Source of the DNA: an uncultured virus (IMG/VR IMGVR_UViG_3300024500_000031)
Taxonomy: Duplodnaviria; Heunggongvirae; Uroviricota; Caudoviricetes
Length of the DNA stretch: 64,000 bases
IMG/VR virus record: IMGVR_UViG_3300024500_000031
Direction: 5' to 3' (one strand)
Part shown: piece after piece, positions 1 through 17,045 of the stretch
Layout of the letters: each line of letters starts with the position of its first letter
Position numbering within the stretch: position 1 is the first letter of the stretch
Program-made: the position numbers and the translations under genes
Notes under the pieces: generated by a model
Told to the model about the DNA's origin: nothing
What the model saw: only the letters and a program-made list of their open reading frames with translations
Database searches by the model: none

Positions 1-21
1 ATCGTTCAGCTGTATTTTGTC

Positions 22-204
22 TTAAGGTAAACCATTCCTTTGCTGTTTCCGCAGCTGCTTTACCTGCTTCAGTGTTCTTTTCTGGTGTATCCACGCCAAA
101 GAGACGACAGTGCTGATCCACAAGCCAAATACCAAAACCGAGATCAATATCACAAACGAACGTATCTCCATCGATAAGTCGTTTAAAACGAATGCTATAT
201 TCAT
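22..204 (-). CDS. small membrane protein (one TM helix, basic C-terminus)
   Basis: Hydrophobic stretch FVILISVLVFGLWISTVVSLAW followed by K/R-rich tail; tightly packed with the upstream gene. Confidence 0.6.
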   Translation of the reverse strand: MNIAFVLNDLSMEIRSFVILISVLVFGLWISTVVSLAWIHQKRTLKQVKQLRKQQRNGLP

Positions 205-207
205 ACA

Positions 208-594
208 TTAGCGGTGTCTCGCTGCTTTCTGTGCTATTGTTCTAGGCTGTGCTACAAACTGTTTGCCAGCGCGATTACCAGCTGCTTTAGCTCGGTTTGT
301 GGCTGCTATCTCACCTTTAGATAATGAACCCCATGCCTTATCTGGTAAATAGCGTTTCTTACCTTCACTAGGAGTTCCGTCACTTGTACGCCATTTTTGA
401 TCAGTCCATTTAGACAGACTGTTATCACTAGTCTTAGGGCCGACGTATCCACCACCGGACTTTTTGTATTGCTGTGTAGCAAGCTGCGCCTTACGTGCTG
501 ACCATTCGCCGGGATCACCACCTTTTGTCCCTGCCTTCACACTAGCGACGATGCGTTTCCATTTAGCTGGATCTCGTTTAATTGCTGTAGCCAT
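208..594 (-). CDS. DUF5872-like basic phage protein
   Basis: GG.PG.WSARKAQ...YKK.GGGY and SL.KWT.Q.WRT motifs recalled for this family. Confidence 0.7.
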   Translation of the reverse strand: MATAIKRDPAKWKRIVASVKAGTKGGDPGEWSARKAQLATQQYKKSGGGYVGPKTSDNSLSKWTDQKWRTSDGTPSEGKKRYLPDKAWGSLSKGEIAATNRAKAAGNRAGKQFVAQPRTIAQKAARHR

Positions 595-1029
595 TTATTT
601 TTTTACTTTCAGTAATTTTGACATTTTGCTCTGTCCTAAATACGCACCATTGCGTCCTCCTAAGGCAGTTTTCCCATACGTATTTTTATCGTCTTTTACC
701 CCTAATACTCTTCGCATCCAACCGGGATCATTCTTTTCATCTTGTATTTCTATTTGTTTTTGTTCTTCTCTCCATGCCTGATAACTAGCGTTTTTATTAC
801 CTTTGATGCCTCTGTCAATTGGCTCTTGTATAGATTTTGTTACGCCTTTAGCAACATCGTCAATAGCTCCGCCGATAAATGGAATGGACTTTAGTTTTTT
901 ACTTACACTAGGTGGTAGATCTGGTCTGATGCTTTCTAGAAACTTATTCTTGCTCTCAGCATCGGATTGAATATTCTTCAGTCGCTTACGTGATAATCCA
1001 GTGAACTGCTTATTAAAATCTTGTGGCAT
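595..1029 (-). CDS. hypothetical protein, basic and Cys-free, starts MPQ
   Basis: AGGAG RBS upstream; abuts next gene; first gene after a candidate promoter. Confidence 0.8.
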   Translation of the reverse strand: MPQDFNKQFTGLSRKRLKNIQSDAESKNKFLESIRPDLPPSVSKKLKSIPFIGGAIDDVAKGVTKSIQEPIDRGIKGNKNASYQAWREEQKQIEIQDEKNDPGWMRRVLGVKDDKNTYGKTALGGRNGAYLGQSKMSKLLKVKK

Positions 1030-1044
1030 AACGATTCTCCTGCT

Positions 1045-1055
1045 CTATTATAACC
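1045..1055 (-). promoter_or_regulatory. candidate -10 promoter element GGTTATAATAG
   Basis: Perfect TATAAT directly after a terminator and before an RBS; near-identical GGTTACAATAG at 33592-33602. Confidence 0.5.
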
Positions 1056-1086
1056 AAAAAAGCCAGCACTGGCGGATGCTGGCTTT
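1056..1086 (-). terminator. intrinsic terminator
   Basis: Stem AGCCAGCA/TGCTGGCT followed on the minus strand by a U-tract (A6 at 1056-1061). Confidence 0.75.
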
Positions 1087-1173
1087 CTGTATGCAGAGTA
1101 TGGAGACTCGGACTTATGAATGTGAGTTTCTGGAGACTTTCATTCATATACTCACCCTTCGGTGGCACAAATA

Positions 1174-1220
1174 TAATACCACCACTTAGTAGAAAGAGTA
1201 AGATCTAAGTGGTGGCATTA
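1174..1220 (-). repeat. 16-bp inverted repeat in the tRNA 3' trailer
   Basis: TAATACCACCACTTAG (1174-1189) / CTAAGTGGTGGCATTA (1205-1220); the single mismatch is a G-U pair on the minus strand. Confidence 0.8.
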
Positions 1221-1248
1221 TCCCCAGTGCGTTTACATACATGGGGGA

Positions 1249-1320
1249 CTCCTACTGCTGGGATCGAACCAGCGACCATTCGGTTAACAGCCGAACGCTC
1301 TACCGCTGAGCTAAGTAGGA
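1249..1320 (-). tRNA. tRNA-Asn (anticodon GTT), CCA not encoded
   Basis: Reverse complement TCCTACTTAGCTCAGCGGTAGAGCGTTCGGCTGTTAACCGAATGGTCGCTGGTTCGATCCCAGCAGTAGGAG: 7-bp acceptor stem, D-loop, anticodon loop CTGTTAA, TTCGA T-loop. Confidence 0.96.
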
Positions 1321-1327
1321 TAACAAA

Positions 1328-1771
1328 CTATTCTATTGCTCCTTTGAGCCACTGGCTAACTCTATCTGTGAAAGGTACGTCAGGTAATGCGTTATCGCAC
1401 TTCTCACGAACCAGCTCTGATTCCGTTTGCTTACCTTCGACTGTATAGCTGTCAACATTTCCGGTGTCATTCGCAGAACGAACATGCACGGATAGTTGAC
1501 GTCTCGTTGCTTTCTTGTTTTCATCATCATCCCCTTGCGCCAACTTTTGACTTAAACGCATTACATCTATGACGTTGACAGCGCAGTCTGTATCTCTACT
1601 TACAGCATACGCAAGGAACCACATTGCTTTAAGGACATCATCCTCGTATGCAGCCCCTTCCTTCTTACCTGCCCTAGCAAGATATGCAACAGCAGTAAAC
1701 AGATACCTATCAAGGTTCCACGCATCAGCTGCGTGTACAGGCTGTAATTCACTTTCATTGTAATACGCCAT
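1328..1771 (-). CDS. DUF3310-like protein with non-conserved C-terminal extension
   Basis: Y..RAGKK....ED..KA.W.L motif typical of DUF3310; adjacent to dUTPase. Confidence 0.65.
   Translation of the reverse strand: MAYYNESELQPVHAADAWNLDRYLFTAVAYLARAGKKEGAAYEDDVLKAMWFLAYAVSRDTDCAVNVIDVMRLSQKLAQGDDDENKKATRRQLSVHVRSANDTGNVDSYTVEGKQTESELVREKCDNALPDVPFTDRVSQWLKGAIE
1333..1530 (-). CDS. ribbon-helix-helix DNA-binding protein nested in an alternative frame of the DUF3310-like ORF
   Basis: FVLRMTPEMLTAI...NQSWFVRSAITHYL fits the RHH pattern; AAGGGG RBS before ATG ATG ATG. Confidence 0.65.
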   Translation of the reverse strand: MMMKTRKQRDVNYPCMFVLRMTPEMLTAIQSKVSKRNQSWFVRSAITHYLTYLSQIELASGSKEQ

Positions 1772-2230
1772 CTATACCCCCGTAGATCCAAAGCCACCAG
1801 CACCACGTTCGGTCTCGTCAAACAACGAACCTTCTTTTAAAACCACTGGTTTACAAAGTGATACAGGAGCTATAACAAGCTGTGCAATACGCATACCGGG
1901 CACAAACGTAAACGTCTCATCACTCATATTTTTGATGATGACCTTTACCTCACCTGTGTAATCAGCATCCACTGTACCGGGGCTGTTAAGCACAACGATC
2001 CCGTGTTTGTAAGCCATACCGCTGCGAGTACGAACCTGAGCCTCATAACCATCCTCCAACTTGATCTTCATACCAGTTGGAATCAACATGATCTGCCCCG
2101 GTCTAATAGTGACATTACGCTCAGCTATATACTGCAGGTCTATTCCTGACGCTTTTTCTGTAGCGCGTTGTGGATTAAATAGATACTCGCAAGACCGAGC
2201 ACCGCAATAAATAATTTCAAGGCTATCCAC
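1772..2230 (-). CDS. dut: trimeric dUTPase
   Basis: All five motifs present: ASGIDL, RSG, NSPGTVDADYTGE, RIAQLV, RGAGGFGSTG. Confidence 0.97.
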   Translation of the reverse strand: MDSLEIIYCGARSCEYLFNPQRATEKASGIDLQYIAERNVTIRPGQIMLIPTGMKIKLEDGYEAQVRTRSGMAYKHGIVVLNSPGTVDADYTGEVKVIIKNMSDETFTFVPGMRIAQLVIAPVSLCKPVVLKEGSLFDETERGAGGFGSTGV

Positions 2231-2490
2231 TACTCCGCTGCCTCAGAATCAAACGTAGTCACAATGCTGTCCAGTGCCATCATCAAGAAGTCAATCACAA
2301 AACGAGCTGGAATTTTGACTCCGTCGTTACGCAAATTAGCACAGTACTGCGCAGCTTCCACCAGCGACAGCCCAGTCTGGTACTCAGGCACGTTGCCGTC
2401 ATTCTTGCGTTTCACAGTAACTGAATACCCGTGCTTAGCACTCTGCTGTACCGTTACCTCACTGTCATTACCCTGCGTCAATAAAAACAT
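2230..2490 (-). CDS. hypothetical protein (start revised to ATG 2490)
   Basis: GAGGTG RBS upstream of MFLLTQG; stop overlaps the dut start. Confidence 0.7.
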   Translation of the reverse strand: MFLLTQGNDSEVTVQQSAKHGYSVTVKRKNDGNVPEYQTGLSLVEAAQYCANLRNDGVKIPARFVIDFLMMALDSIVTTFDSEAAE

Positions 2491-2544
2491 AGCACACCTC
2501 AATATATGTATAACATATGGTACCACAATTGTATGGATCCTAAT

Positions 2545-2580
2545 TTCTCCGTGGGGAGAAGATGTTCTCCGATGGGAGAA
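2545..2580. promoter_or_regulatory. two tandem palindromes TTCTCC-N4-GGAGAA (operator-like)
   Basis: 2545-2560 and 2565-2580, 20-bp period, in the divergent intergenic region. Confidence 0.6.
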
Positions 2581-2751
2581 ATAGTAAAGATAGCTGAGAG
2601 AAAATAGGCGTAGGAATCGGTATCTAGTCGAGTGTAGGCGGGGTAGGGGCTTGCCATGCGGGTGGGGGGAGGGTGCCCCGGCTCGGCAGCATCTAGTCGT
2701 TTTTTACCGCTGAGCATATTACGGGTGTAGGCGACGCACCATGCGTTCCCT

Positions 2752-2796
2752 GCGGGCGGGCGATGTTCACGGTAGCATCGCCCGCCCGTTTTTTTT
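2752..2796 (+). terminator. strong GC-rich hairpin followed by T8
   Basis: GCGGGCGGGCGATG / CATCGCCCGCCCGT then TTTTTTT. Confidence 0.8.
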
Positions 2797-2847
2797 ACCG
2801 TATCATCGCCGATTGTTTACTTGAGTTTAGTTTATGGAGGTTCGATT

Positions 2848-3225
2848 ATGTCAGTAGAGTTAGTGCGTTCGCAGTGTATTACGTTGCTTGACGGTCTGAG
2901 TGACCTGTTCGCCGATACGACGGCGGCAGACCGTGTGGAGCAGGCACGTAAGTATGTGCATCAGGACATTAAGACAGGGCGTTCCCGCCTGTCCGCATAC
3001 CTGCCCGCCCGCACGGGTACACCGTGGAAGCCTGAGGTTACGCTTCAGGATATCGTTGGTATCATTCGTCTGGCACACCGTCAGGGCTTGATTGCCGATG
3101 ATGACTACGTAGACTTCAAGCAGTTCCACTTGGACCAGCGAGAGTTGCTCCGTGGTGAGCAGGTGGTGGATGCCATCACCATGCTCCAGAGAAGTCTGGA
3201 TGCCTACGCCCGTCGCACACGCTGA
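2848..3225 (+). CDS. hypothetical protein, first gene of the plus arm
   Basis: GGAGG RBS before ATG 2848; followed by a terminator. Confidence 0.8.
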   Translation: MSVELVRSQCITLLDGLSDLFADTTAADRVEQARKYVHQDIKTGRSRLSAYLPARTGTPWKPEVTLQDIVGIIRLAHRQGLIADDDYVDFKQFHLDQRELLRGEQVVDAITMLQRSLDAYARRTR

Positions 3226-3232
3226 CGGGCAG

Positions 3233-3265
3233 ACCACCCGGTACAAGTTACCGGGTGGTTTTTTT
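3233..3265 (+). terminator. intrinsic terminator
   Basis: Perfect 11-bp stem ACCACCCGGTA/TACCGGGTGGT plus T-run. Confidence 0.85.
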
Positions 3266-3286
3266 ATGACTTATGGAGTTAAAAAA

Positions 3287-3601
3287 ATGAGAGAGTTTAA
3301 AGCAGAGATTCAACTAAACAACGGGTTCAGTGGGTGTATCTCTATCGTTCGTAATCGCATGACGATTGGTAACCGACAAGGACTATTCGAGATTGCATAC
3401 ATTACGCCTGAGGGGTGTATTGTTGATGCAACCATCATGGGTGCGTTGACTGCATCGGAAGTAATCAATTGGGTCAAGCGGTACAAGAATGACCGCGACC
3501 TTCTCCTGCGGTTGGTTGCCATTGATTTGGCTGAAGCCAATCGTGCTCGTCGGTTCATGTTTGCTTTGGACGCCCAGTTGGGCAAGGAGGTGTGTAAATG
3601 A
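3287..3601 (+). CDS. hypothetical protein (start revised to ATG 3287)
   Basis: GGAG RBS; ATGA overlap with the next gene. Confidence 0.75.
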   Translation: MREFKAEIQLNNGFSGCISIVRNRMTIGNRQGLFEIAYITPEGCIVDATIMGALTASEVINWVKRYKNDRDLLLRLVAIDLAEANRARRFMFALDAQLGKEVCK

Positions 3602-3981
3602 TTGTAGTTGTTACTCGGCATCTTGGGGCAGTTGAGTGGCTGATTCGCCACGAGATCATCCCTAATGACGCTAATGAGGTAAGCGTGATTGACCACGCCA
3701 CTCCTGAAGATGTAACTGGGCAAGTCGTGTACGGCGTATTGCCGTTGCACCTTGCCGCTCTGGCAAAGGAAGTCCACAGTATCGACATCCCCAACTTACC
3801 CGCTGACAAGCGTGGTAAGGAATTGACTGCTGACGATATGGACACGCTCAATGCGTCCATCGTCAGTTACAAAGTCCTCCCAATGGAAGATTGGGTGGCT
3901 ATTCGGGAAGAGATCAAGGCTCTGGATGACAACCTTGCGTGGGTCCAGCAGAAACTGGAGGAGGAGAAAGAATGGGACTAA
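3598..3981 (+). CDS. csx16: Csx16-like protein, putative cyclic oligoadenylate ring nuclease
   Basis: N-terminal VTRH.GAVEWL, central HA....V.G..V.G.LP.HLAA, C-terminal LP...RG.EL.AD match the recalled Csx16 (VVA1548-type) consensus; GGAGG RBS. Confidence 0.8.
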   Translation: MIVVVTRHLGAVEWLIRHEIIPNDANEVSVIDHATPEDVTGQVVYGVLPLHLAALAKEVHSIDIPNLPADKRGKELTADDMDTLNASIVSYKVLPMEDWVAIREEIKALDDNLAWVQQKLEEEKEWD

Positions 3982-4193
3982 AACACCGTTCTCGTTGGTA
4001 TAGTGACTGGCGTTCAGACGTCAGTCGGCTGGATGACGACCAGCAACTCATCGATGACACCATTGACACGGTGCAAGCCATGACAGGCTGTGCTGTGTCG
4101 ATGTCGGCGAATACGGCGCTGGATGATGCGCGTGGCGTTTGGGTTCGCTCAAACGACGACGCTATCCTGCGTCGGTTCCGCCGAACACGCTAA
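3972..4193 (+). CDS. hypothetical protein
   Basis: GAGGAG RBS before ATG 3972; followed by a terminator. Confidence 0.6.
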   Translation: MGLKHRSRWYSDWRSDVSRLDDDQQLIDDTIDTVQAMTGCAVSMSANTALDDARGVWVRSNDDAILRRFRRTR

Positions 4194-4214
4194 CACGCTG
4201 AGGAAATGAGGCGT

Positions 4215-4252
4215 GTGCCCTGCCCAGTCAATCTGGGCGGGGCGCTTTTTTT
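4215..4252 (+). terminator. intrinsic terminator
   Basis: GTGCCCTGCCCAG/CTGGGCGGGGCGC stem with two G-U pairs on the plus strand, then T7. Confidence 0.85.
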
Positions 4253-4265
4253 GTAGGAGTTTATT

Positions 4266-4466
4266 GTGAAGAAGTTAATTAAGTTCATCAAGTCTATTGA
4301 CTGGTCAATGCACTACATGGCATTGATGCTTATTGCACTCGCCGTGGCTGGCTGCTTGGTCGTTGAAATGAGTAAGCGACACGAAGCAGAGTTAGACAGA
4401 CAACGTGCTGTCGAAATGCTCGAAATCGAGCGTGACCGTCGTTACAACGACAGTCTCATCAATTAA
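4266..4466 (+). CDS. small membrane protein
   Basis: AGGAG RBS, GTG start, TM segment MALMLIALAVAGCLVV. Confidence 0.75.
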   Translation: MKKLIKFIKSIDWSMHYMALMLIALAVAGCLVVEMSKRHEAELDRQRAVEMLEIERDRRYNDSLIN

Positions 4467-4476
4467 GGAGTTTATT

Positions 4477-4749
4477 GTGAAAAAGTTGGATGCAAAGATT
4501 TTGGAGGCTACGCCTAGTAGCCTTCTCGCTAACCTAGACGCACTGAAGTCGATTCAAGTGCGTAACCGTCGCACACCAAGCGACATCGTCACCTCTTGTG
4601 TTGCATTGTGTGCTCAGGCACGACGCACTCACCCGCAGCTTGAAAAACTGATTTACAATCTCGAAGATCAAATGTGGATGGTAAACGAGTGTTATGACGC
4701 ACTCTGGGTGCTGTCCATTAACGCACGATGGATTCCAGTAAAAATATGA
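4477..4749 (+). CDS. hypothetical protein (start revised to GTG 4477)
   Basis: Same AGGAGTTTATTGTGAA initiation context as the gene at 4266. Confidence 0.75.
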   Translation: MKKLDAKILEATPSSLLANLDALKSIQVRNRRTPSDIVTSCVALCAQARRTHPQLEKLIYNLEDQMWMVNECYDALWVLSINARWIPVKI

Positions 4750-4845
4750 AGCAACTAATCGCACGGGTCTCGCCAGAGGCCCGTTTCTACATCGTTTTCT
4801 GGACAGTAATGTTCACACTCGCAGGAATGGGGGCAAAACACAAAG

Positions 4846-5232
4846 TTGACAACGCAAAACATCATGGCACTACGCAACGCACTGGTAAAATCGGACAGCC
4901 AAATGGCTGGCATGTCAATACGATGCGTGGAAGTCACCGCTGATCGTAAATACAGGGAACGAACCGTCACGTTCGATGATTTCCGAGCCGAAATCATCTG
5001 GGCGTTGAAGACGTTCAAAGACCCGTCATGGGCTGGCTACGTCACAGAACCCACGAACTGTGACAACCCACATTGCCCACTGTACACCGGGCCTGAGTAC
5101 ACACTCACAATTAAAACTCACGGACGAGGCGACCGCACCATGTGGTCGTGGATCGACAGCGAGCTGGATCGCAAGGCATATGAAACATACTGCTACGACC
5201 ACAGCTGGCTAGAACATCTGGAGGTCAAATGA
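4846..5232 (+). CDS. hypothetical protein
   Basis: Open frame coupled (ATGA) to the next gene; start uncertain. Confidence 0.65.
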   Translation: MTTQNIMALRNALVKSDSQMAGMSIRCVEVTADRKYRERTVTFDDFRAEIIWALKTFKDPSWAGYVTEPTNCDNPHCPLYTGPEYTLTIKTHGRGDRTMWSWIDSELDRKAYETYCYDHSWLEHLEVK

Positions 5233-5465
5233 TAATCAAGTCACCGCATCTGGCGTACAAAGTTATGTCAGATGTGGCAAACATGATGAACGCACGAATG
5301 TTCACACTAAGCAATCACCAACACGTAACTTACATCGCACTCACTAACAATGATGGCAATGTAGGTTACTGGTCACACGATGATGATGACTGTGAAATTG
5401 TTATCAACAATAAAAATCACAACGTCAAACAATACTTGCATAACGTACGCAAACGTCGTAAGTGA
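5229..5465 (+). CDS. hypothetical protein
   Basis: GGAGG RBS, ATGA overlap. Confidence 0.7.
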   Translation: MIIKSPHLAYKVMSDVANMMNARMFTLSNHQHVTYIALTNNDGNVGYWSHDDDDCEIVINNKNHNVKQYLHNVRKRRK

Positions 5466-5476
5466 CACGTCGTCAC

Positions 5477-5541
5477 GGAGGGGTCAAAAATTATACCCCT
5501 CCAATTTTTACAGGGGGGAGGGGTCGGATATTACCCCCCTC
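5477..5541. repeat. two tandem inverted repeats GGAGGGGT...ACCCC
   Basis: GGAGGGGT-N10-ACCCCTCC (5477-5502) and GGAGGGGT-N8-ACCCCCCTC (5517-5541). Confidence 0.7.
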
Positions 5542-5547
5542 ATTATA

Positions 5548-5577
5548 TTGAATAACAATCAATGTAATACTTATAAT
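5548..5577 (+). promoter_or_regulatory. candidate sigma70-type promoter
   Basis: TTGAAT-18 nt-TATAAT in an AT-rich intergenic gap upstream of the HTH gene. Confidence 0.55.
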
Positions 5578-5600
5578 GTATCCGACAGAAAGAGTTCACC

Positions 5601-5942
5601 ATGAATACGACACAATCAGTCCCCGTACATTTGCTCTCCAAGAAAGAGCAAACACGACTCATAAAAGCTGGCATCATCCAGCCAATCCATGACCCGATGA
5701 GGGAGGTAAAAGAGAGATGGTTCAACTTGTGTAGGTATAGCCAATGGGTTACAACCACACGAATGGCTAATCTATGTGGTGTTACACGCACCACATTCAC
5801 TACGTACATGTCCAACGACGAGACGCGTCAACGTCTCATTGATAAATTTTGGGATGCAACACGTCCGTCACAACGTGACGTCACGTTCATCTTCAATACG
5901 TTCCGTAACGTTGCACGAAAGGGTGAAATCGATAATGGGTAA
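5601..5942 (+). CDS. putative helix-turn-helix DNA-binding protein
   Basis: TTTRMANLCGVTRTTFTTYM fits the HTH pattern (A..LGV..T). Confidence 0.6.
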   Translation: MNTTQSVPVHLLSKKEQTRLIKAGIIQPIHDPMREVKERWFNLCRYSQWVTTTRMANLCGVTRTTFTTYMSNDETRQRLIDKFWDATRPSQRDVTFIFNTFRNVARKGEIDNG

Positions 5943-6231
5943 ATGGAATATCGGCGATCGCGTACAGTCTATACGCCGTCCCGGATTCTATGGAACTGTG
6001 GTTAGCGTGGAGGGAAACCTCCACGTTAACCCAGACCACAACAGGATTATGGTCAAGTGGGACAAAGTAAAAAAGAACTCACGAGGCCAGTGGATATCAG
6101 GCACACTTGACGAGTTGCCCATCGACTTGCGCTCAAGCAAGGACCGCAGCTTGTTACCCGCTGCGGGTAAAAAGTTGACCGGATCTGAATACGGTCGCAT
6201 TCTTGGTAATAAAAGGTTGAAAGAACTATGA
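5935..6231 (+). CDS. hypothetical protein with SH3/KOW-like N-terminus (start revised to 5935)
   Basis: WNIGDRV...GTVV...VKWD beta-barrel pattern. Confidence 0.6.
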   Translation: MGKWNIGDRVQSIRRPGFYGTVVSVEGNLHVNPDHNRIMVKWDKVKKNSRGQWISGTLDELPIDLRSSKDRSLLPAAGKKLTGSEYGRILGNKRLKEL

Positions 6232-6338
6232 CGCTATTCTTGTTCTCCATCGGCGTAGTTATCCTGTCAGTTTTGTACTTGGCAGGTTATTTTTTCAGCA
6301 CCATCAGTGAGTATCAAAAGAGGATTGATAATGAGTAA
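6228..6338 (+). CDS. 36-aa membrane peptide (not in ORF track)
   Basis: MTLFLFSIGVVILSVLYLAGYFFSTISEYQKRIDNE; ATGA overlap upstream, overlaps the next start. Confidence 0.6.
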   Translation: MTLFLFSIGVVILSVLYLAGYFFSTISEYQKRIDNE

Positions 6339-6693
6339 ATTCATGTCACCTAGTGAGTTTGTCAAGAACTTGGCAACCTCATTGCAAGGTGTATACAACA
6401 ATAAATTTGATGAAATCAATGTTTCTCGTTCGACTATCAATAACCAATACATTGATGGTCGCAAACGCTTTCATGCCACGGTTCAAGTTCACTGTCAGAA
6501 AGACAAACCATATCAGGTGGCTCGTGCCACAGTGGATCTCATTGTTCGACAGGACAAAGAAGTGACGGTGTTTGTCTCGTCACCGTCATTCAACGAAGAA
6601 ATAGTATGGCAGTCAGATCCTGACTCAGCCAACTATTGGTTGACAGATGTAGAGACATTACTTTTACAGGAGTACAACAATGACAATAGATGA
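6331..6693 (+). CDS. hypothetical protein
   Basis: GAGGA RBS before ATG 6331. Confidence 0.75.
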   Translation: MSKFMSPSEFVKNLATSLQGVYNNKFDEINVSRSTINNQYIDGRKRFHATVQVHCQKDKPYQVARATVDLIVRQDKEVTVFVSSPSFNEEIVWQSDPDSANYWLTDVETLLLQEYNNDNR

Positions 6694-6889
6694 AAAGAAA
6701 ATCGCCTACTGGAAGTGGGTGAATAACATGATATTGATGGCAGAGATGACCAACATGTGTCTGCCTAAAAACCTACGGAAAGACTTTCAGACTGAACTTC
6801 CACAGACAGACGATGTCGAAGTTCAGTACCAATTCATGCTGAACTACAACAAGAATAAAGCACGAGAGTTGCGGGAGTTAATGAGTTAA
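6680..6889 (+). CDS. hypothetical protein
   Basis: AGGAG RBS, coupled to neighbours. Confidence 0.75.
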   Translation: MTIDEKKIAYWKWVNNMILMAEMTNMCLPKNLRKDFQTELPQTDDVEVQYQFMLNYNKNKARELRELMS

Positions 6890-7233
6890 TGAGAATAGAA
6901 CACTATCTAATCATGTTAGCCAAGTATACTTGGCTACATATTCATCCCGGTGATGGAATGCGTAGACTTATTCAAGCACGAGGGAATGAGGAACTAGATG
7001 CGTGTGACTCATATCTTGATTCACACGCTAAAGAGTACAAACACAAGCTCAAAGATTTCTGCGAGACACATCTTCCACACATTGATAGCCGTGCTCGGTT
7101 CAATGACTGGTGTGCAGATGAGCCAACTGATGACGAAAAACAGAAATACCATAACTACATGGCATACATAGTAGTGTATGGTGCTGATGGATTTGAGCAC
7201 ACGCCAAAAGGATGGACTGTAATCGAAGTCTGA
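6889..7233 (+). CDS. hypothetical protein
   Basis: TAATG overlap, GGGAG RBS. Confidence 0.75.
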   Translation: MRIEHYLIMLAKYTWLHIHPGDGMRRLIQARGNEELDACDSYLDSHAKEYKHKLKDFCETHLPHIDSRARFNDWCADEPTDDEKQKYHNYMAYIVVYGADGFEHTPKGWTVIEV

Positions 7234-7238
7234 TTAAT

Positions 7239-7274
7239 GTGAGGGGTGCGTCTCACTAAAAACGCACAGAAAGA
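7239..7274 (+). ncRNA. repeated cis element, predicted H-type pseudoknot (copy 1)
   Basis: GTGAG-GG-GTGCGT-CTCAC-TAAAA-ACGCAC-AGAAAGA. Confidence 0.7.
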
Positions 7275-7280
7275 TTACCG

Positions 7281-7622
7281 ATGATTAACACAACTAAGTA
7301 TAAATGTGCAACACTTACAGATTTAAGATATGCCATTGCAGATGCAAATCCTACAATGTTCAAAGATCTTACTACAAAAGAACTGCGTTACATTGTTCGT
7401 CGCATAATGCCACTAAAAATTGATAAAGAACCAATCCAACGTATTATGCCAGCATCTGTTCTCATCAAAGCTTTGTACGAAGATGTAACACAATCAGATA
7501 TTCCAAGCACAATGAATATTTGGCTTGATACTTGGAACGAAACATTGAGTTCTTTTTATCAAAAATATGTTCTTGAAGAAACATCTGTTTACTTCATCAT
7601 CGACGATTCCAAACATCATTAA
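7281..7622 (+). CDS. hypothetical protein
   Basis: ORF exactly fills the space between pseudoknot copies 1 and 2. Confidence 0.75.
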   Translation: MINTTKYKCATLTDLRYAIADANPTMFKDLTTKELRYIVRRIMPLKIDKEPIQRIMPASVLIKALYEDVTQSDIPSTMNIWLDTWNETLSSFYQKYVLEETSVYFIIDDSKHH

Positions 7623-7627
7623 TCAAT

Positions 7628-7664
7628 GTGAGGGGTGCGTCTCACTGACAACGCACAGAAAGAG
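7628..7664 (+). ncRNA. repeated cis element, predicted H-type pseudoknot (copy 2)
   Basis: GTGAG-GG-GTGCGT-CTCAC-TGACA-ACGCAC-AGAAAGAG. Confidence 0.7.
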
Positions 7665-7673
7665 TTAACAATC

Positions 7674-8165
7674 ATGTCCGTAAATATTTACACCAACTAT
7701 TTCGTTGATCGTTTGACCGCTAACCATGCTCGCCTTCAAGAAGGCACGCTTGGTAAGTATGAATACTATGAGTCATACTCACATGAGTCACAGATGAACA
7801 TCAACGATCATCGATTTAGGTTGGTGTACAAACTCCGCATTGAAATAGCCGACAAAGAAGGTAATGCCTTGCCAGTACCTAACGTCATCATGGGCGTAAC
7901 CTTTGAAGCCTATGAAGATGAAAGTGTTACAGTTCTTTCGCCATCTGCAAGTAAGAGTGTTGATTATAATGTCAAACTTACAAAGACTGAGTTCCTTGAA
8001 CAAGTGGCAGAAGCCATCGAGAAGTTTAAATCATTCATTGAGGACTTCCCAATTCCTCAACTTGAGTTTGACTTCTGGCCACAGACTGCCAAACTCATGA
8101 AGCAGTTTGATCGCCAAACATCATCAACTGCACGTGACAACTCAGACTTCCTGTCACTAAAGTAG
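7674..8165 (+). CDS. hypothetical protein (start revised to ATG 7674)
   Basis: The track's GTG start lies inside the repeat; ORF fills the space between copies 2 and 3. Confidence 0.75.
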   Translation: MSVNIYTNYFVDRLTANHARLQEGTLGKYEYYESYSHESQMNINDHRFRLVYKLRIEIADKEGNALPVPNVIMGVTFEAYEDESVTVLSPSASKSVDYNVKLTKTEFLEQVAEAIEKFKSFIEDFPIPQLEFDFWPQTAKLMKQFDRQTSSTARDNSDFLSLK

Positions 8166-8171
8166 TTATAT

Positions 8172-8208
8172 GTGAGGGGTGCGTCTCACTGACAACGCAC
8201 AGAAAGAG
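8172..8208 (+). ncRNA. repeated cis element, predicted H-type pseudoknot (copy 3)
   Basis: Identical to copy 2 over 37 nt. Confidence 0.7.
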
Positions 8209-8214
8209 TTTAAT

Positions 8215-8454
8215 ATGACCAAGCGAGATAAAGCACATATGACCGCAGTACTAAAACACTGCAATCTTGACGTGTTTACATACAGCCCCGGAGATGGTGT
8301 TACACGCTACAAGTTTGCACCCAAAGGCATGTACGGCGATTACTTTGTAGCCGACCGTGGAGCACAAGCCTGTGGATTTAGCGAAGCAATGACATGGCTG
8401 TATGGCTATCAACAAGCACTTCTTGATCATCACATGAATGGAGAAAAAATCTAA
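8215..8454 (+). CDS. hypothetical protein (start revised to ATG 8215)
   Basis: Follows repeat copy 3; TAATG coupling to the next gene; TYSPGDG.TRY.F motif. Confidence 0.75.
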   Translation: MTKRDKAHMTAVLKHCNLDVFTYSPGDGVTRYKFAPKGMYGDYFVADRGAQACGFSEAMTWLYGYQQALLDHHMNGEKI

Positions 8455-8930
8455 TGCCACTTACATACGACACAAGCAACTGTCATCCGATTGTTCGCGA
8501 AGAACTTGCTGGAATCACAGAACGCATCATTTTTATAACCATGAATACTCGTCATGGATGGGAGTTGAACAAGAAGACAATGCCCGTGTTCATTCGCAGG
8601 TTCAACCTGTTAAATAAAACATGGAGGTATTTATGTATGGCTGATACGACGCACATGCGACAAACACATGACCGTATATGGCTTGACAAGTTTGGACTGC
8701 AATGGATCGGCGATGAGTATCCTCACCTTGTTCTAACTGAAGACTCAGTGCAGACGTATTGGTTCGGACTCAAAACTAATTGTGGTCAAGACACAGATGC
8801 AAAATGGAACAAGAATTTCTTGGAGAACCAGTATCGTGAATCTTTTGATCAGAGTCCGTTTTATCTGCGATACAGAACGATTGAACAAGTAAAGGATATA
8901 TACAATGAGCTTTGTATTCAGGCCGATTAA
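8454..8930 (+). CDS. hypothetical protein
   Basis: GGAG RBS, coupled start. Confidence 0.75.
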   Translation: MPLTYDTSNCHPIVREELAGITERIIFITMNTRHGWELNKKTMPVFIRRFNLLNKTWRYLCMADTTHMRQTHDRIWLDKFGLQWIGDEYPHLVLTEDSVQTYWFGLKTNCGQDTDAKWNKNFLENQYRESFDQSPFYLRYRTIEQVKDIYNELCIQAD

Positions 8931-9222
8931 GTACACGTTTTGGAGCACGTTCGGGGATAACACCCCGAACGACTTCATCGCTTGCTACATCGAACCACGT
9001 TTTGGTAATGCTGATGGTGTAGCAATACGACGACGACTCGCTCGTGAGATTGGATGCACTGGGTTGAGAACTGGCATCGAGTGGCTTTGCCATGACACAC
9101 AGTACAGCATGTACTCTGAACGCCATTCCATGATAGGTTTTGCTGAGGTACTAGAACCTATCACCGTTGAATCGAAAGCACAGGCTAGATCTATCTGTGC
9201 ATTTATGGAGTTAAAACAATAA
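8905..9222 (+). CDS. hypothetical protein
   Basis: AAGGA RBS, contiguous operon. Confidence 0.65.
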   Translation: MSFVFRPIKYTFWSTFGDNTPNDFIACYIEPRFGNADGVAIRRRLAREIGCTGLRTGIEWLCHDTQYSMYSERHSMIGFAEVLEPITVESKAQARSICAFMELKQ

Positions 9223-9434
9223 TGATTAAAGCAAACTGCAAGTATACGTTCCAACCTGTAGGTATGGATTTATTCTATCCACATGACATCAATGCTGGAG
9301 AAGAGGTAACCGTACTACCAACACCTCAAGGTTGTCCTAACCCAAGACCAATGAAGATGGTGTACGTACGTTCCACTAATCAACCATGTGTGTTGGTACT
9401 TATGAATAGCCTACAACCAAGGAGTAAAAAATGA
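9222..9434 (+). CDS. hypothetical protein
   Basis: GGAG RBS, coupled at both ends. Confidence 0.7.
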   Translation: MIKANCKYTFQPVGMDLFYPHDINAGEEVTVLPTPQGCPNPRPMKMVYVRSTNQPCVLVLMNSLQPRSKK

Positions 9435-9814
9435 GTGAATGGTTCAGCTTGGAAGACAGAAACTATCAAAACGACCACCGTGTACGCGGTGGTCGTGATC
9501 GTTGGTGGATTGCAATTGATGAACGCAAGATGCTAGTGAGGCACAAGTATGACAGTAAGACCAATAAACAAGTTTGGTACAAATTCAAATATGAAGCCTG
9601 CGATACATGTGATGGTAAAGGCCATCACGTTAATCCTTCTGTTGATTGCGATGGTCTAACAGCTGAAGATATGTATTACGGTGGTTACGAAGAGGACTAC
9701 TTTGAGGGCGTGTACGACGTGGCTTGTTACAAATGCCATGGTGAACGAGTCATGCCAGTAAAGTACGGAAAAGCAATATACAAAAAATCAAATGAGGAGG
9801 ATCGTTATGAGTGA
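9431..9814 (+). CDS. zinc-finger protein (two CxxCxG motifs)
   Basis: CDTCDGKG and CYKCHG; AGGAG RBS. Confidence 0.75.
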   Translation: MSEWFSLEDRNYQNDHRVRGGRDRWWIAIDERKMLVRHKYDSKTNKQVWYKFKYEACDTCDGKGHHVNPSVDCDGLTAEDMYYGGYEEDYFEGVYDVACYKCHGERVMPVKYGKAIYKKSNEEDRYE

Positions 9815-10208
9815 TGACAACATATTCCTGCAAGCATGGAATGAAATTATAGAGGACCGCGAGGTAGCACAAGAGTGCTACCTTTCTATTTATCAAGTCG
9901 AATCTTATTACGGTGGACCAGAGGAAGGAGGATGGTGGGGTTATCTACACATACTAAAAGAGTATTGCAAATGCTCGTCTCGTGAGGCAGCAGAAATGCT
10001 AATGAAAAAACTACAGGAGCGTTGTGAGCAATTAAATAACGAAGCAAAAATTGCTGATGGCGAAGATTGTCTGCGCCACATGGAACGTGCTGATCGGCGT
10101 GGTGAAGACGTTAGTGATGACGGATATGACGGACCATCGACATACTACATGACGATTGAATCGGTGCCGGGTGAGAATCAAGTAACAACAAAGAGTCATT
10201 ATGAATAA
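9807..10208 (+). CDS. hypothetical acidic protein with YGGPEEGGWW motif
   Basis: GAGGAGG RBS before ATG 9807. Confidence 0.75.
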   Translation: MSDDNIFLQAWNEIIEDREVAQECYLSIYQVESYYGGPEEGGWWGYLHILKEYCKCSSREAAEMLMKKLQERCEQLNNEAKIADGEDCLRHMERADRRGEDVSDDGYDGPSTYYMTIESVPGENQVTTKSHYE

Positions 10209-10581
10209 GCGATACAAAGAAGAGTATTACCATGCAGCTGCAGAATTTATTATGCAAACTGCTGCAACCATATGGGAGTTGCAATGGCATAACAGTGAAT
10301 GGAAACACTGTCCAAACAATGCACATCGTACATACAGCATTGACGTGCTTGATGAGGTCGATCCACACTACACGTGGACATTCCGCATTGAGTGTGGTTT
10401 TGCACTTGACTGCGTAGGCAAAAAATGTAAAGGCGAATGCGATGACCTTAGTACAGTCGGTGTAAACATTGGCTGGGATGGTATCAGCGAAGAGGAGGCG
10501 CATTATATATGTGACATTATCGATAAAGACGACAACAAATATAGTAAATATTGGTTTTGGAATGACGGAGTAACAAAATGA
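10201..10581 (+). CDS. hypothetical protein
   Basis: Overlap-coupled on both sides. Confidence 0.7.
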   Translation: MNKRYKEEYYHAAAEFIMQTAATIWELQWHNSEWKHCPNNAHRTYSIDVLDEVDPHYTWTFRIECGFALDCVGKKCKGECDDLSTVGVNIGWDGISEEEAHYICDIIDKDDNKYSKYWFWNDGVTK

Positions 10582-11471
10582 CAGCTAAAGAATATCTCAA
10601 CAAGTTTGGGCTGGATGCAGATCCAGCCCTTTTTACTAACGTAACTAATAACAAGCACATGAAACCCAAGTACAATTCGTACTGCTTTTATAACGGCGTG
10701 TCACAACTTGATCGGCGTTCGCCTATCATTGCAGTTATGTCCAACTGTCAATACAACCCAGAGGATTACAACATCAAGACTGGTGATATGTTACAGACAT
10801 ACATCATCATGCGTGATGTCCACCCTCAACATGCCATTGACTTTATGATTGACGACTGCATCTGTGGCAAATGTGTACACAAAAAAGGTTGGAAGAAACA
10901 CATTGTCAATGGCAAGGTCAAGCTTGTGCGTACGTGTTACGTTAACATTGGCAAGGGTGTTACTGCAATCTGGGAGTCATTCCAGCGAGGCAATGTACCT
11001 ATTGTGTCTAGCACTGTTGCTGCAACAATACAAGTTGTTGCTGGCAAGCAGACTCGCATGGGTTCGTATGGCGATCCTGTAGCCGTTCCGTTTCCTGTAT
11101 GGGGCGACCTGTTACGCTACAGTCTTGGTCATCGTGGCTACACACACCAATGGCGTATGAAGTTAGCTCAGCCATTCAAGGGCATACTACAAGCGTCATG
11201 TGATAACTATACTGACCAGTATGAGGCAGAGCAAGCTGGCTGGGGTACATTTACTGTCCTGCCTGAGCATGACTACGTCAATCGTAGGCACGTAGCCTAC
11301 AGCAAGGGTATGAAGCAATGCCCCAGCGACCCATTTATCAATGAGATGCGAGCGTATCGCAATATGCTACCAATGCACACAACGTGTGTTGGTTGCCCTG
11401 CGTCTCTCCAATGTGATGGCGACAGCCATGTTGTCATCCGCGCCCACGGCCCTGCAGCTAAGTGGGTTTAA
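10578..11471 (+). CDS. DUF7227-like Cys-rich phage protein (possible Fe-S / radical-SAM-like fold)
   Basis: N.KTGDM.QTYI, ICG.C, CYV, R.G.YGDP.AVP, GYTHQW, AS.D, CP...CxxC...C motifs. Confidence 0.6.
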   Translation: MTAKEYLNKFGLDADPALFTNVTNNKHMKPKYNSYCFYNGVSQLDRRSPIIAVMSNCQYNPEDYNIKTGDMLQTYIIMRDVHPQHAIDFMIDDCICGKCVHKKGWKKHIVNGKVKLVRTCYVNIGKGVTAIWESFQRGNVPIVSSTVAATIQVVAGKQTRMGSYGDPVAVPFPVWGDLLRYSLGHRGYTHQWRMKLAQPFKGILQASCDNYTDQYEAEQAGWGTFTVLPEHDYVNRRHVAYSKGMKQCPSDPFINEMRAYRNMLPMHTTCVGCPASLQCDGDSHVVIRAHGPAAKWV

Positions 11472-11504
11472 TTAAACAAACAAATAAACACGAGGTAACA
11501 CAAT

Positions 11505-11927
11505 ATGTTTTATTCAGTATGTGAGTACGAAGAATGGTCAACTGATCACTACGATTATGCACGTGACCAGCACTACACAGAAGACGGGGAGTTTCTCTCC
11601 CCGTGCGTTGGTGTAGAATTGATGTCGCGTGTAGGCAAGATGATATTTACAGACGTAAGTGTTGTGTACGAAGATAGACGTGTCATCGAATTCATTGATG
11701 AGGCTGTCAAACAGATGAAAATTGATAGGCCAAACAGTTGGGATATAGAAAAGTTTTGTGCTCTTGTTGCATCTACATATCACGAAAGAAACATTGACGA
11801 GTTTAATGATGCAATGTTTGAGTTTATCTATGACTGCACATACAGCGAGTGGACAGACATGTACAGTGGTCAAGATCTGTACGATGATTGCTCACTACTA
11901 CAACCAAATGGATGGGGAGAAGACTAA
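11505..11927 (+). CDS. highly acidic hypothetical protein
   Basis: GAGGT RBS; 32 D/E vs 10 K/R in 140 aa (hand count). Confidence 0.8.
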   Translation: MFYSVCEYEEWSTDHYDYARDQHYTEDGEFLSPCVGVELMSRVGKMIFTDVSVVYEDRRVIEFIDEAVKQMKIDRPNSWDIEKFCALVASTYHERNIDEFNDAMFEFIYDCTYSEWTDMYSGQDLYDDCSLLQPNGWGED

Positions 11928-12223
11928 TGACAGAAGAAGAATGGAATGAAAAAGACTTAGCTTTTGAAAAAGAGCTGCGCAAACTCCGGGAGAAATACCC
12001 GGAGTTTTATATTGAAGTATGGGGGCCATATGACTTTGTTTGTGGAGTGAATAGAGAAGAGTTTCAATCACATGACTTAATCATGGCTGAAATCATTGAA
12101 CGAGAAGATGAATGGCCAGAAGTTGTAACAGAATTACACGAAGGATTTGATGCCAACTATGGCACAAACTGGGACAGGATCGACATAACAGTAAAGGAAG
12201 TACGACGTAATGCAAGCAAGTGA
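11927..12223 (+). CDS. acidic hypothetical protein (start revised to 11927)
   Basis: GGGGAG RBS, TAATG coupling. Confidence 0.75.
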   Translation: MTEEEWNEKDLAFEKELRKLREKYPEFYIEVWGPYDFVCGVNREEFQSHDLIMAEIIEREDEWPEVVTELHEGFDANYGTNWDRIDITVKEVRRNASK

Positions 12224-12545
12224 CACACATGTCAAGTGGGTAATAGGTGATATTGATCGAGAGTTTTGGTACGACCAGATTACAGAAGGTATACGTCATT
12301 GTGAATGGGTAGTTGAATGGAATGCTGGCTGGATTGGTTATGATAATCAAAAGACATTGTTTCATATAGATATTCACGATGAAGAAGAGGAGGTGCATAC
12401 AATATCTTCTCTCGACGTGCTTACTTGGTTACAAAAAGCATGGTCACTTGGAGATCGTACGTTTGAGGAAGAACAGCAAGTCGATCAAGATGTTATTGAC
12501 ACAATGTTACAAGAGTTATGTTTTGGTGAATTAATTTACGGATAA
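12210..12545 (+). CDS. acidic hypothetical protein ending CFGELIYG
   Basis: AAGGA RBS; 25 D/E vs 6 K/R (hand count). Confidence 0.75.
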   Translation: MQASDTHVKWVIGDIDREFWYDQITEGIRHCEWVVEWNAGWIGYDNQKTLFHIDIHDEEEEVHTISSLDVLTWLQKAWSLGDRTFEEEQQVDQDVIDTMLQELCFGELIYG

Positions 12546-12556
12546 GGAATAAAGCA

Positions 12557-13054
12557 ATGCCTAATTGGTGTATGAACGAGTTAACAATCACTGGCCCAGC
12601 AGACAAAGTGTCTGCTTGGGCTGAGTTACACACTACAAAGTATGAGACAAGCACATCAGTACTAGACTTCAACAAGTCTGTGCCAGAGCCATTGGATGAG
12701 AATGGTTGTGGTGATGTCAACTGGCAATACAATAACTGGGGCACTAAGTGGGGAGCTTGCGACACAGGCTACTTAGACTTCAAAGAAGGTCATATTGTTA
12801 TTGGTTTTGATACAGCATGGGGTCCAGCTGACACATGGTTACACACTATGTCTGACATGTTCCCTGATCTTGAGTTCCACTGTAGATATGCTGAACCCGG
12901 CATGATGTTTGCTGGTGATATCTACGCAGGACCAAAAGGATACAGTCACGAACAGCGTTCAGATGATGACCTAACAGATGATGACCTACATCTAATGGGT
13001 GCTGAAACGTGTGTTCAATGTGAGAACTGGGAGCACAAATGCACCTGTGAGTAG
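12557..13054 (+). CDS. DUF1281/YubB (Api92-like ferredoxin-fold) family protein
   Basis: MPNWC.N.L.I.G, W..NNWGTKW, FDTAW.P, Y.EPG..FAG motifs. Confidence 0.85.
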   Translation: MPNWCMNELTITGPADKVSAWAELHTTKYETSTSVLDFNKSVPEPLDENGCGDVNWQYNNWGTKWGACDTGYLDFKEGHIVIGFDTAWGPADTWLHTMSDMFPDLEFHCRYAEPGMMFAGDIYAGPKGYSHEQRSDDDLTDDDLHLMGAETCVQCENWEHKCTCE

Positions 13055-13093
13055 GATATACTCATGTATTACTTTAATAATTGAAAGGTTTTT

Positions 13094-13492
13094 ATGTTAC
13101 AGGATTTAATTAATTTGCTTGATGCAATGAAGAAGAATAGTGATTACAAAGACGGGTGGGACAAACTAGAACCACTCATTGGATTAAATGGTGTAGTGTC
13201 CCTATCGTGGCCACAATGGCGTCTCAAAATTGTTACGTTCAGGATGCCGAAAGAATGGGATGGCAGCACAGAACAAGCAGAAGAAATACGTACCATTGAC
13301 AATTTGTATTGGCACAATGATCAAATCATATGGATTACAGACAAGAACAAAAATCAATATGATGAATCTTCTCTTGTGCGTGTAACTATAGCGGAGATCA
13401 TTGATGAGTTCCTGTCTGGTAAGTGGACACCACCATGGAAATGTGGGTACTGCGTGAGTAGACATAAGGGTTCATTGCATCCAAAGTTCTAA
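13094..13492 (+). CDS. hypothetical protein with C-terminal CxxC
   Basis: GAAAGG RBS; coupled to the next gene. Confidence 0.7.
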   Translation: MLQDLINLLDAMKKNSDYKDGWDKLEPLIGLNGVVSLSWPQWRLKIVTFRMPKEWDGSTEQAEEIRTIDNLYWHNDQIIWITDKNKNQYDESSLVRVTIAEIIDEFLSGKWTPPWKCGYCVSRHKGSLHPKF

Positions 13493-14046
13493 TGCCAACA
13501 CGTAGACGTAATGCTTACCATGCTGTCTGCTATATTGTGTCAAGTAATAAACGCAATGTAGCAGTCAGCAATCAATTTGTTGCCAAGATTATTTATCAAC
13601 ACTGGATAAGTATTTGTCAACAACAAGCTATTGATAATGTCATCACTGTACATGCATTGATGTCACCCAATAGCTGGTCTACTTGGAGCCGTAAACATAT
13701 AGTGCGCTTGTTAAACAACGCATGGAAGTGGAGGCTGTTATGTAAAACAGAAATTAAAAACAAAGAAACAAAAGAAACACTATCAAATACACAAATGAAA
13801 GTAACAGGAGATGATTATGAATACAACGCTGAATACACATACAGCTTGCTGCCGAAATCAGTTTTACACGCGCTCGATAATGCGCTCAATGACGCAAACA
13901 TACTTCAATTGTTACTACGTGCACCTACAGCATTGGCTGCACACGTTGCAATAAAAACAGAAGGTTACGTTAAATGGGCGGATGGCACAAGAATAGACCA
14001 TATCAAACAGGTATGGGAGTTCTTGAATTATGAGATCAAAAGGTGA
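13492..14046 (+). CDS. hypothetical protein
   Basis: TAATG coupling; 184-aa open frame. Confidence 0.7.
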   Translation: MPTRRRNAYHAVCYIVSSNKRNVAVSNQFVAKIIYQHWISICQQQAIDNVITVHALMSPNSWSTWSRKHIVRLLNNAWKWRLLCKTEIKNKETKETLSNTQMKVTGDDYEYNAEYTYSLLPKSVLHALDNALNDANILQLLLRAPTALAAHVAIKTEGYVKWADGTRIDHIKQVWEFLNYEIKR

Positions 14047-14134
14047 CGATCCAAGAGTTGGATGCATCACAACATTTATTATGGTGTTACTCGTTGCAAT
14101 AGCATTGTACATTGATGTAATACGTAATAGATGA
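14030..14134 (+). CDS. 34-aa membrane peptide (not in ORF track)
   Basis: MRSKGDDPRVGCITTFIMVLLVAIALYIDVIRNR; GGGAG RBS; ATGA overlap with VRR-NUC gene. Confidence 0.55.
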   Translation: MRSKGDDPRVGCITTFIMVLLVAIALYIDVIRNR

Positions 14135-14514
14135 GACGTAATAGAGCAGAAGCAACACTGCAACAACAAGTTGTACACCTATTAACAACGTGTGGTTATA
14201 CAGTTATGGAGATTGGCAAATCACGTGGCAAAACAAGATGTGTCAAGTGTGGGAACTGGAGTTACTCAACTGGCTGGCAAGGCAATACAGTTGGAGCACC
14301 TGACCTCTATATCCATCACAAGCAGTGGAACTTCTGCTCTATTGGCATTGAGTTGAAGACAGAGAAAGGAGCTGTGCGAAAAGAGCAACAACAATTTTCA
14401 GAACAACAATTAATCGTAATATGCAGATCAATAGAAGATGTAATACAGCAAGTGTTAGCTATTGACAAAATGTTTGGTAATGAAACTAAATTGGAGAAAT
14501 TAACGTGGATTTAA
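14131..14514 (+). CDS. VRR-NUC family PD-(D/E)xK endonuclease with CxxC insert
   Basis: E..LQ, GAPDL, IELKT..G....Q motifs. Confidence 0.85.
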   Translation: MRRNRAEATLQQQVVHLLTTCGYTVMEIGKSRGKTRCVKCGNWSYSTGWQGNTVGAPDLYIHHKQWNFCSIGIELKTEKGAVRKEQQQFSEQQLIVICRSIEDVIQQVLAIDKMFGNETKLEKLTWI

Positions 14515-16313: not shown

Positions 16314-16367
16314 GATTGCATTGCCCCTGAAACTATATCAACACAGGGGAAAACAACTACCAAATGG

Positions 16368-16398
16368 AGGACCACGGCATCAACACCGTGGTCCTTTT
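16368..16398 (+). terminator. hairpin / intrinsic terminator
   Basis: Perfect 10-bp stem AGGACCACGG/CCGTGGTCCT with short T-run. Confidence 0.65.
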
Positions 16399-16418
16399 GT
16401 CCCACAGAAAGAAAGAGA

Positions 16419-17036: not shown

Positions 17037-17045
17037 GGAATAACT

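Follow-up and report, generated by a model that had tools for sequence, protein, structure and literature searches.

Can a stand-alone csx16-like gene, carried by an uncultured tailed phage, encode an antagonist of type III CRISPR immunity? A precedent exists in AcrIII-1, a small viral dimeric cA4 ring nuclease whose anti-CRISPR role is established. The gene considered here lies in a stretch of 64,000 nucleotides from IMG/VR record IMGVR_UViG_3300024500_000031 (the window, meaning the whole stretch that was analysed), and an earlier note made from these letters had proposed its product as a candidate anti-type III ring nuclease. We reach a similar reading and place it at a probability of about 0.62: the protein, P0001, would be a cA4-degrading anti-type III CRISPR ring nuclease, an activity that we infer.

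The window covers most of a tailed-phage genome. According to PHROGs, the minus arm encodes terminase, portal, major capsid, holin and endolysin, and the plus arm encodes a Gam-like protein, an O-like initiator and DnaB, with the divergence of the arms lying at about 2530–2840. The longest contig with an identical protein has 66,774 bases, so that about 2.8 kb of the phage genome probably lies outside the window. The plus arm opens with many small genes, and csx16 is the third of them, with the following features:

2752..2799, plus strand: GC-rich hairpin with a T-run, 5' of gene 1 (−33.0 kcal/mol)
2848..3225, plus strand: gene 1, 125 aa, assigned to no family; a homologue stands in the same place in a sister phage
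3231..3271, plus strand: hairpin with a T-run, between genes 1 and 2
3287..3601, plus strand: gene 2, encoding a hypothetical viral protein of 104 aa; its stop and the start of csx16 overlap by 4 nt (ATGA)
3584..3590, plus strand: AAGGAGG ribosome-binding site, within the end of gene 2 and just 5' of csx16
3598..3981, plus strand: csx16-like gene (P0001), ATG start, 127 aa, no internal stops
3598..3876, plus strand: Csx16 core domain, residues 1–93, delimited by the PF09652 match (4–93), conservation and model; it holds T6-R7-H8, H33, G46-x-L48-P49-x-H51 and R72-G73-x-E75-L76
3877..3978, plus strand: lineage-specific C-terminal helix, residues 94–127 (34 aa), from AlphaFold2 and the dimer model
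3972..4193, plus strand: gene 4, 73 aa, with a 10-nt overlap with the csx16 end; a homologue follows csx16 in the sister phage
4215..4255, plus strand: terminator-like hairpin with a T-run, closing the gene 2–csx16–gene 4 unit

csx16 lies within the gene 2–csx16–gene 4 unit, which has hairpin-plus-T-run sites at both ends; seven such sites were observed in the region scanned, against 2.7 expected. It is virus-encoded and outside any cas locus. In line with the earlier note, other cas genes and an array were looked for in the window and not found: Pfam found no further cas family among 56 window proteins (30 from the plus arm and 26 others, a set covering part of the smaller ORFs), no CRISPR array was detected in the window, and Csx16 is present in a single copy. 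The label "early region" is drawn from layout, namely the position of csx16 at the small-gene head of the plus arm. Third-position GC in the first four plus-arm genes (2848–4193) is 0.52–0.63, against 0.28–0.41 in six core genes checked; adaptation of this first-entering cassette to a host richer in GC may account for the difference, as may a separate origin.

Judged by its sequence, P0001 is a member of the Csx16 family, outside the strict set of the TIGR02620 equivalog model. PF09652 (Cas_VVA1548) matched residues 4–93 with 66.3 bits (cut-off 25; E 2.8e-18; profile positions 2–90 of 91), three Csx16 models of PADLOC matched with a best E of 1.5e-18, and TIGR02620 gave 35.2 bits (E 1.1e-8), under the NCBIfam cut-off of 46.35. 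A profile–profile comparison of P0001 with canonical Csx16 returned 99.7% (E 7.6e-27), and we regard the family match as far past chance at the sequence level. The Csx16 profile search suggested in the earlier note was therefore positive with PF09652 and PADLOC and sub-cut-off with TIGR02620. The motifs first seen in the gene (TRH.GA.EW, G.LP.HLAA and RG.EL.AD) recur as TRHLGAVEW, GVLPLHLAA and RGKELTAD. The statement that AcrIII-1 (DUF1874) is a separate sequence family also held, since PF08960 (AcrIII-1/Crn2, DUF1874) gave no match to P0001 and PF09652 was its sole Pfam hit at E ≤ 0.01. PHROGs assigned P0001 to no family. A reading of P0001 as an ankyrin protein was rejected: the PDB sequence search yielded almost solely DARPins through the common word PLHLAA, and the best of these (E 6.4e-4) was a sum over repeats with no significant single stretch.

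The residues most conserved in the family are largely kept. Fifteen columns are invariant among 11 canonical-type sequences, and P0001 keeps 13 of them, the exceptions being Q42 in place of D and a Gly lost with a 4-residue segment that is deleted in P0001; its position 47 is V, where T or S is usual in the canonical type. Every conserved His, Arg and Glu of canonical Csx16 is retained. The canonical rows are mixed: six adjoin cas genes or an array (L008, L070, L072, L073, L075, L077), L005 and L007 stand on cas-free mobile elements, and the others come without context. Across the viral conservation set of 47 rows (51 minus three duplicates and one cut-off gene), G46, L48, P49, R72 and G73 occur in all 47, R7 and H8 in 44/47, H51 in 40/47 and H33 in 37/47. 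The literature searched contained no Csx16 mutagenesis, so the catalytic residues named below are putative.

AlphaFold2 modelled P0001 (pLDDT 91.8) as a small α/β fold with five core strands, as expected for Csx16, followed by a helix spanning 96–126. Neither PDB nor BFVD yielded a Foldseek match at E ≤ 0.001. Among the 48,161 chains compared by VIA-align, AFV3-109, an AcrIII-1/Crn2 homologue, came out on top (Z 5.0, rmsd 2.6, 72 aligned residues), with a weak score that falls within the range of common arrangements; a Csx1-Crn2 chain scored Z 3.9. For cellular Csx16, a similarly weak structural match is published, to the viral Crn2 homologue 2J6B (Z 4.8; PMC12409355), and Csx16 is noted to resemble DUF1874 in part (PMC8284326).

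The model supports a symmetric P0001 homodimer. The dimer modelling that the earlier note had asked for gave a score of 0.71, against 0.00 for the best of three controls, with AMP included but unscored; in a rough calibration, 20 of 30 solved homodimers but only 1 of 23 single chains scored as high. The runs agreed in at least 94% of contacts, with pLDDT of at least 88. The modelled interface comprises residues 47–63 and 89–99 and continues down the tail as far as 124 in a heptad-like series, with predicted tail–tail contacts at 99, 102, 105/106, 109/110, 112/113, 116/117, 119/120 and 123/124. From this series, the tail probably extends the dimer interface as a paired helix.

The tail of some 35 residues had been called atypical, which holds for its sequence and not for its presence. 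This tail is kept in P0002–P0004 and replaced in the sister phage, and no homologue outside its own cluster was found among 150 representatives. Extensions as such are frequent in the virus-type group: among the 150 best relatives, 60 are extended by at least 25 aa at the C-terminus and 47 at the N-terminus, and 28 at neither end. Nineteen of the same 150 (including P0005, P0061–P0067, P0073 and P0108) are tandem two-domain forms, which fit the dimer as the working unit. One half of the tandem lacks the TRH motif in P0061, P0064, P0073 and P0108, which suggests an asymmetric single-chain pocket in these forms.

How widespread are such genes outside CRISPR loci? The earlier note had proposed a survey for cas-free phage csx16. 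An exact-word scan of IMG/VR viral contigs with the Csx16 alignment gave 116 candidate stretches, and virus-type Csx16 loci were found on 51 contigs among them, one identical to the window; a scan with an alignment of the canonical type yielded four loci among 12 candidates, and the ratio of 51 to 4 is indicative only, because the two scans used different words. Fifty viral records were searched whole, at least 90% complete in only 13 cases, and contained no Cas10, no AcrIII-1 and one weak RAMP match. Among 150 scanned ORFs neighbouring viral Csx16 (172 picked), Pfam found no cas family and no recognised anti-defence family, and blastp among the 172 neighbours gave scattered pairs only, with no common neighbour module. 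The nearest ESM Atlas clusters are 83–100% viral, counted over members with a record. The Csx16 profile matched 2,835 clusters (50% identity, E ≤ 0.001), canonical members included and without context. PF09652 was found in 2 of 401 Pseudomonadota genomes searched, a cas-free copy stands on an archaeal plasmid, and three tblastn queries against cultured phages returned only the Methanobacterium viruses Drs3 and PhiF3. These data are evidence that the virus-type Csx16 group is large and wider than cultured collections show, and we add here that P0001, by its sequence, belongs to this group.

Several elements carry other forms of the family. Four viral contigs (L078–L081) have canonical-type Csx16 and no RAMP gene in the record, which suggests separate viral acquisitions of this type. 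In the metagenome loci L005 and L007, on apparently cas-free mobile elements, canonical-type Csx16 bears a C-terminal extension of 85–90 aa, and csx16 follows a PAPS-reductase-like gene and lies near LPD29/LPD30 and DUF3085 genes. In one further Csx16 phage, G016 (L065; 55.9 kb, terminal repeats in the record), a gene with a weak RAMP-family match lies close to one resembling PAPS reductase, an arrangement reminiscent of type IV-B-like modules:

L065:9915-10904 and 8346-9215, minus strand: pair in RAMP-family / PAPS-reductase-like context

A close comparison is available in the sister phage, G002 (97% complete), whose longest alignments with the window show 66–81% nucleotide identity and in which neither RAMP nor Cas10 was found. 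The order gene 1, csx16, gene 4 is kept there, without gene 2 and with a different, shorter csx16 tail. Over the csx16 core (93 codons), dN is 0.28 and dS 2.9, giving a dN/dS of about 0.10 that is rough because dS is near saturation; csx16 is under purifying selection and maintained. Gene 2 is missing from the matching position, but the sister phage encodes a distant homologue of it at another place (L011 near 12476); the Atlas clusters of gene 2 are unnamed and fully viral. The stretch 2600–5600 was also present in 24 riverine-labelled metatranscriptome runs among the matches listed, 15 of them with at least half of the words. In three of four runs examined, a single contig spans the whole of csx16 (2745–4252, 2649–4148 and 2736–4134); in the fourth, the contig is split inside csx16 and spans the divergent intergenic region. 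These contigs are a weak hint of expression only, as strand, level and timing cannot be read from them, DNA may be present and depth cannot rank genes.

Where the gene came from is less clear than the earlier note had supposed when it described a Csx16 co-opted by the phage from a CRISPR locus. P0001 shares only 28–37% identity with six CRISPR-locus members and falls within the large virus-type group. In an unrooted tree (64 rows, 103 columns, four partial rows left out), 12 canonical-type rows form one side of a branch (100/99), and P0001 falls among viral rows, paired with the sister phage copy (99/91). Joining this pair to the canonical group was not rejected by the AU test (p 0.227). On a recent capture from a CRISPR locus the two results diverge, the free tree placing P0001 apart from the canonical group and the AU test being compatible with such a capture.

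What would the protein do? Cellular Csx16 fully degrades cA4 in EDTA and does not degrade cA6 or cA3, and stays cA4-specific even at tenfold protein (Hoikkala 2025, PMC12409355). In the mechanism that we favour, virus-type Csx16 would be expressed early, as part of the opening cassette of the small-gene arm, a timing suggested by gene layout, and P0001 would assemble into a homodimer with two-fold symmetry. Its cA4 pocket, with a geometry that is a matter of prediction, would probably be formed by the T-R-H, H33, LP-x-H and R-G-x-E residues. cA4 made by the Cas10 of the host, presumed to use a cA4-signalling type III system, would be cut to linear products without metal; cA4-activated effectors of the Csx1, Can and Cam types would be starved and infection would proceed, which is the tactic of AcrIII-1. 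The C-terminal helix would be a lineage-specific add-on, probably dimer-stabilising and presumably dispensable for catalysis. Several observations weigh against this mechanism: the TIGR02620 score under its cut-off, the departures from canonical Csx16 (Q42, V47 and the deleted segment), the weakness of the fold match, and neighbouring viral ORFs in which no anti-defence family was recognised. Ring-nuclease activity in vitro need not mean protection, since AcrIII-2, a viral SAVED protein, is active in vitro and gave no rescue in a plasmid assay (PMC12751052).

The reading that competes most directly keeps the ring nuclease and changes its substrate: with a shifted or broader specificity (cA3 or other cyclic tri- or dinucleotides), P0001 would act against CBASS-type or several signalling defences, instead of type III systems or besides them. 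The virus-type group does differ consistently near the dimer interface (H51 in 40/47, where the canonical residue is N or H; V/N47 in place of T/S; the 4-residue deletion), the diversity of the family is great (the whole profile matched 2,835 clusters at E ≤ 0.001, versus 2/401 Pseudomonadota genomes with PF09652), and the several tandem forms with a TRH-less half would have an asymmetric pocket. Other ring nucleases show such breadth, as Csx20 cleaves cA3 at high concentration (PMC12409355) and Csx15 is reported to be broad in specificity (bioRxiv 10.64898/2026.10.26.761840). However, the sole Csx16 tested so far kept to cA4 at the tenfold dose, and the symmetric homodimer model of P0001 suits the two-fold symmetry of cA4, so we hold a change of specificity to be unlikely, while giving it some weight.

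Two further readings give cleavage of a defence signal little or no part. P0001 might be a passenger or serve a role outside immunity, for instance as a phosphodiesterase with a general action on small RNAs or nucleotides early in infection, as the unconserved hypothetical genes that neighbour csx16 would allow. Purifying selection and synteny in the sister phage, a strong ribosome-binding site with coupled gene overlaps, and the cas-free recurrence of the gene in unrelated viruses, on plasmid-like elements and in two cultured viruses of methanogens speak against this, as does cA4 cleavage being the only activity demonstrated in the Csx16 family in the sources accessible, and we consider such a role improbable. 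Still harder to credit is a P0001 that binds the signal and cuts it slowly or never. Certain Csx15 members apparently sponge cA4 (PMC13148439), and P0001 has lost two canonical invariant positions; yet the conserved His, Arg and Glu are all in place, and sponging is argued in the same source to be ill-suited to the large cOA amounts that type III systems produce.

A cA4-degrading P0001 would take its place among several proteins already described. Phage Csx16 is already in print, with 2 of 28,114 phage genomes counted as carrying it, versus 36 with AcrIII-1 (PMC12409355), and Drs3 and PhiF3 are probably these two. Viral Crn4 and phage Crn4b have been described (PMC12830947), and viral Csx15, with more than 20 sequences, has been proposed as AcrIII-3 (bioRxiv 10.64898/2026.10.26.761840). 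The accessible parts of the papers on AcrIII-2, viral Csx15 and Crn4b mention no viral Csx16, the accessible main text of PMC12669027 does not name Csx16, and we found no published test of a viral Csx16 in the literature searched, in which subscription journals are thinly covered.

P0001 resembles cellular Csx16 in profile family, in the T/S-R-H, H, G-x-LP and RGxEL motifs, in its predicted dimer and in the weak match to AFV3-109; unlike it, P0001 is phage-encoded with no cas genes found, shares 28–37% identity, scores below the TIGR02620 cut-off, and has Q42 for D, the 4-residue deletion and the 34-aa C-terminal helix. The Csx16 of Drs3 and PhiF3, by GenBank annotations, is also a stand-alone gene in a tailed virus, and that of Drs3 likewise lies in a short small-gene run, at the record end; in contrast to P0001 (30–35% identity), both belong to viruses of archaeal hosts, form a separate long branch and have no helical tail. 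AcrIII-1/Crn2 is the best, though weak, fold match (Z 5.0), but is another family, and its anti-CRISPR role is established where that of P0001 is proposed. With AcrIII-2, the proposed AcrIII-3 and Crn4b, P0001 shares the pattern of a cellular ring-nuclease family with viral members proposed as anti-CRISPRs, although these belong to different sequence families.

Were P0001 active, Csx16 would join the few ring nucleases listed for viruses, which would point to a viral use of Csx16 much wider than the two published cultured genomes suggest. Since cA4 destruction against type III CRISPR is already established, the principle would be a familiar one and the gain would lie in an added family member. 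At 127 aa and probably mesophilic, P0001 would be an easy protein for comparing virus-type and cellular Csx16 in speed and breadth, and its tail offers a testable case of a C-terminal helix tuning dimer stability. Taken jointly, the data also allow a more tentative proposal, to which we give somewhat less than even odds: the virus-type branch, marked by the LPLHLAA motif, by extensions in many members and by single-chain tandems, may be a large, old and widespread family of anti-CRISPR ring nucleases in uncultured viruses, so far without a name, overlooked as cultured collections hold two archaeal examples, perhaps broadened past cA4 and perhaps the source of CRISPR-locus Csx16 rather than its derivative.

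Host searches named no host. DnaB reached at most 36% identity, to plasmid proteins, and the major capsid protein 23–25%, to cultured phages. An Armatimonadota host, guessed from a weak copper-amine-oxidase-N match on the endolysin, was unconfirmed, as a search of 401 genomes with window positions 1–20000 gave tRNA matches only among the matches listed. The endolysin itself (19511–20293, minus strand) combines weak matches to CHAP and copper-amine-oxidase-N-type domains, and a tRNA-Asn(GTT) gene lies at 1249–1320 on the minus strand. At 20296–33588 (minus strand), after the virion genes, stands an ORF of 4,430 aa to which Pfam assigned no family at E ≤ 1e-4; its product may be ejected or belong to the virion. 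A 41-nt repeat occurs at 7237–7277, 7626–7666 and 8170–8210, upstream of three plus-arm genes, and the sister phage has it as well (L011 near 11864 and 12408); it is probably a phage promoter or regulatory site.
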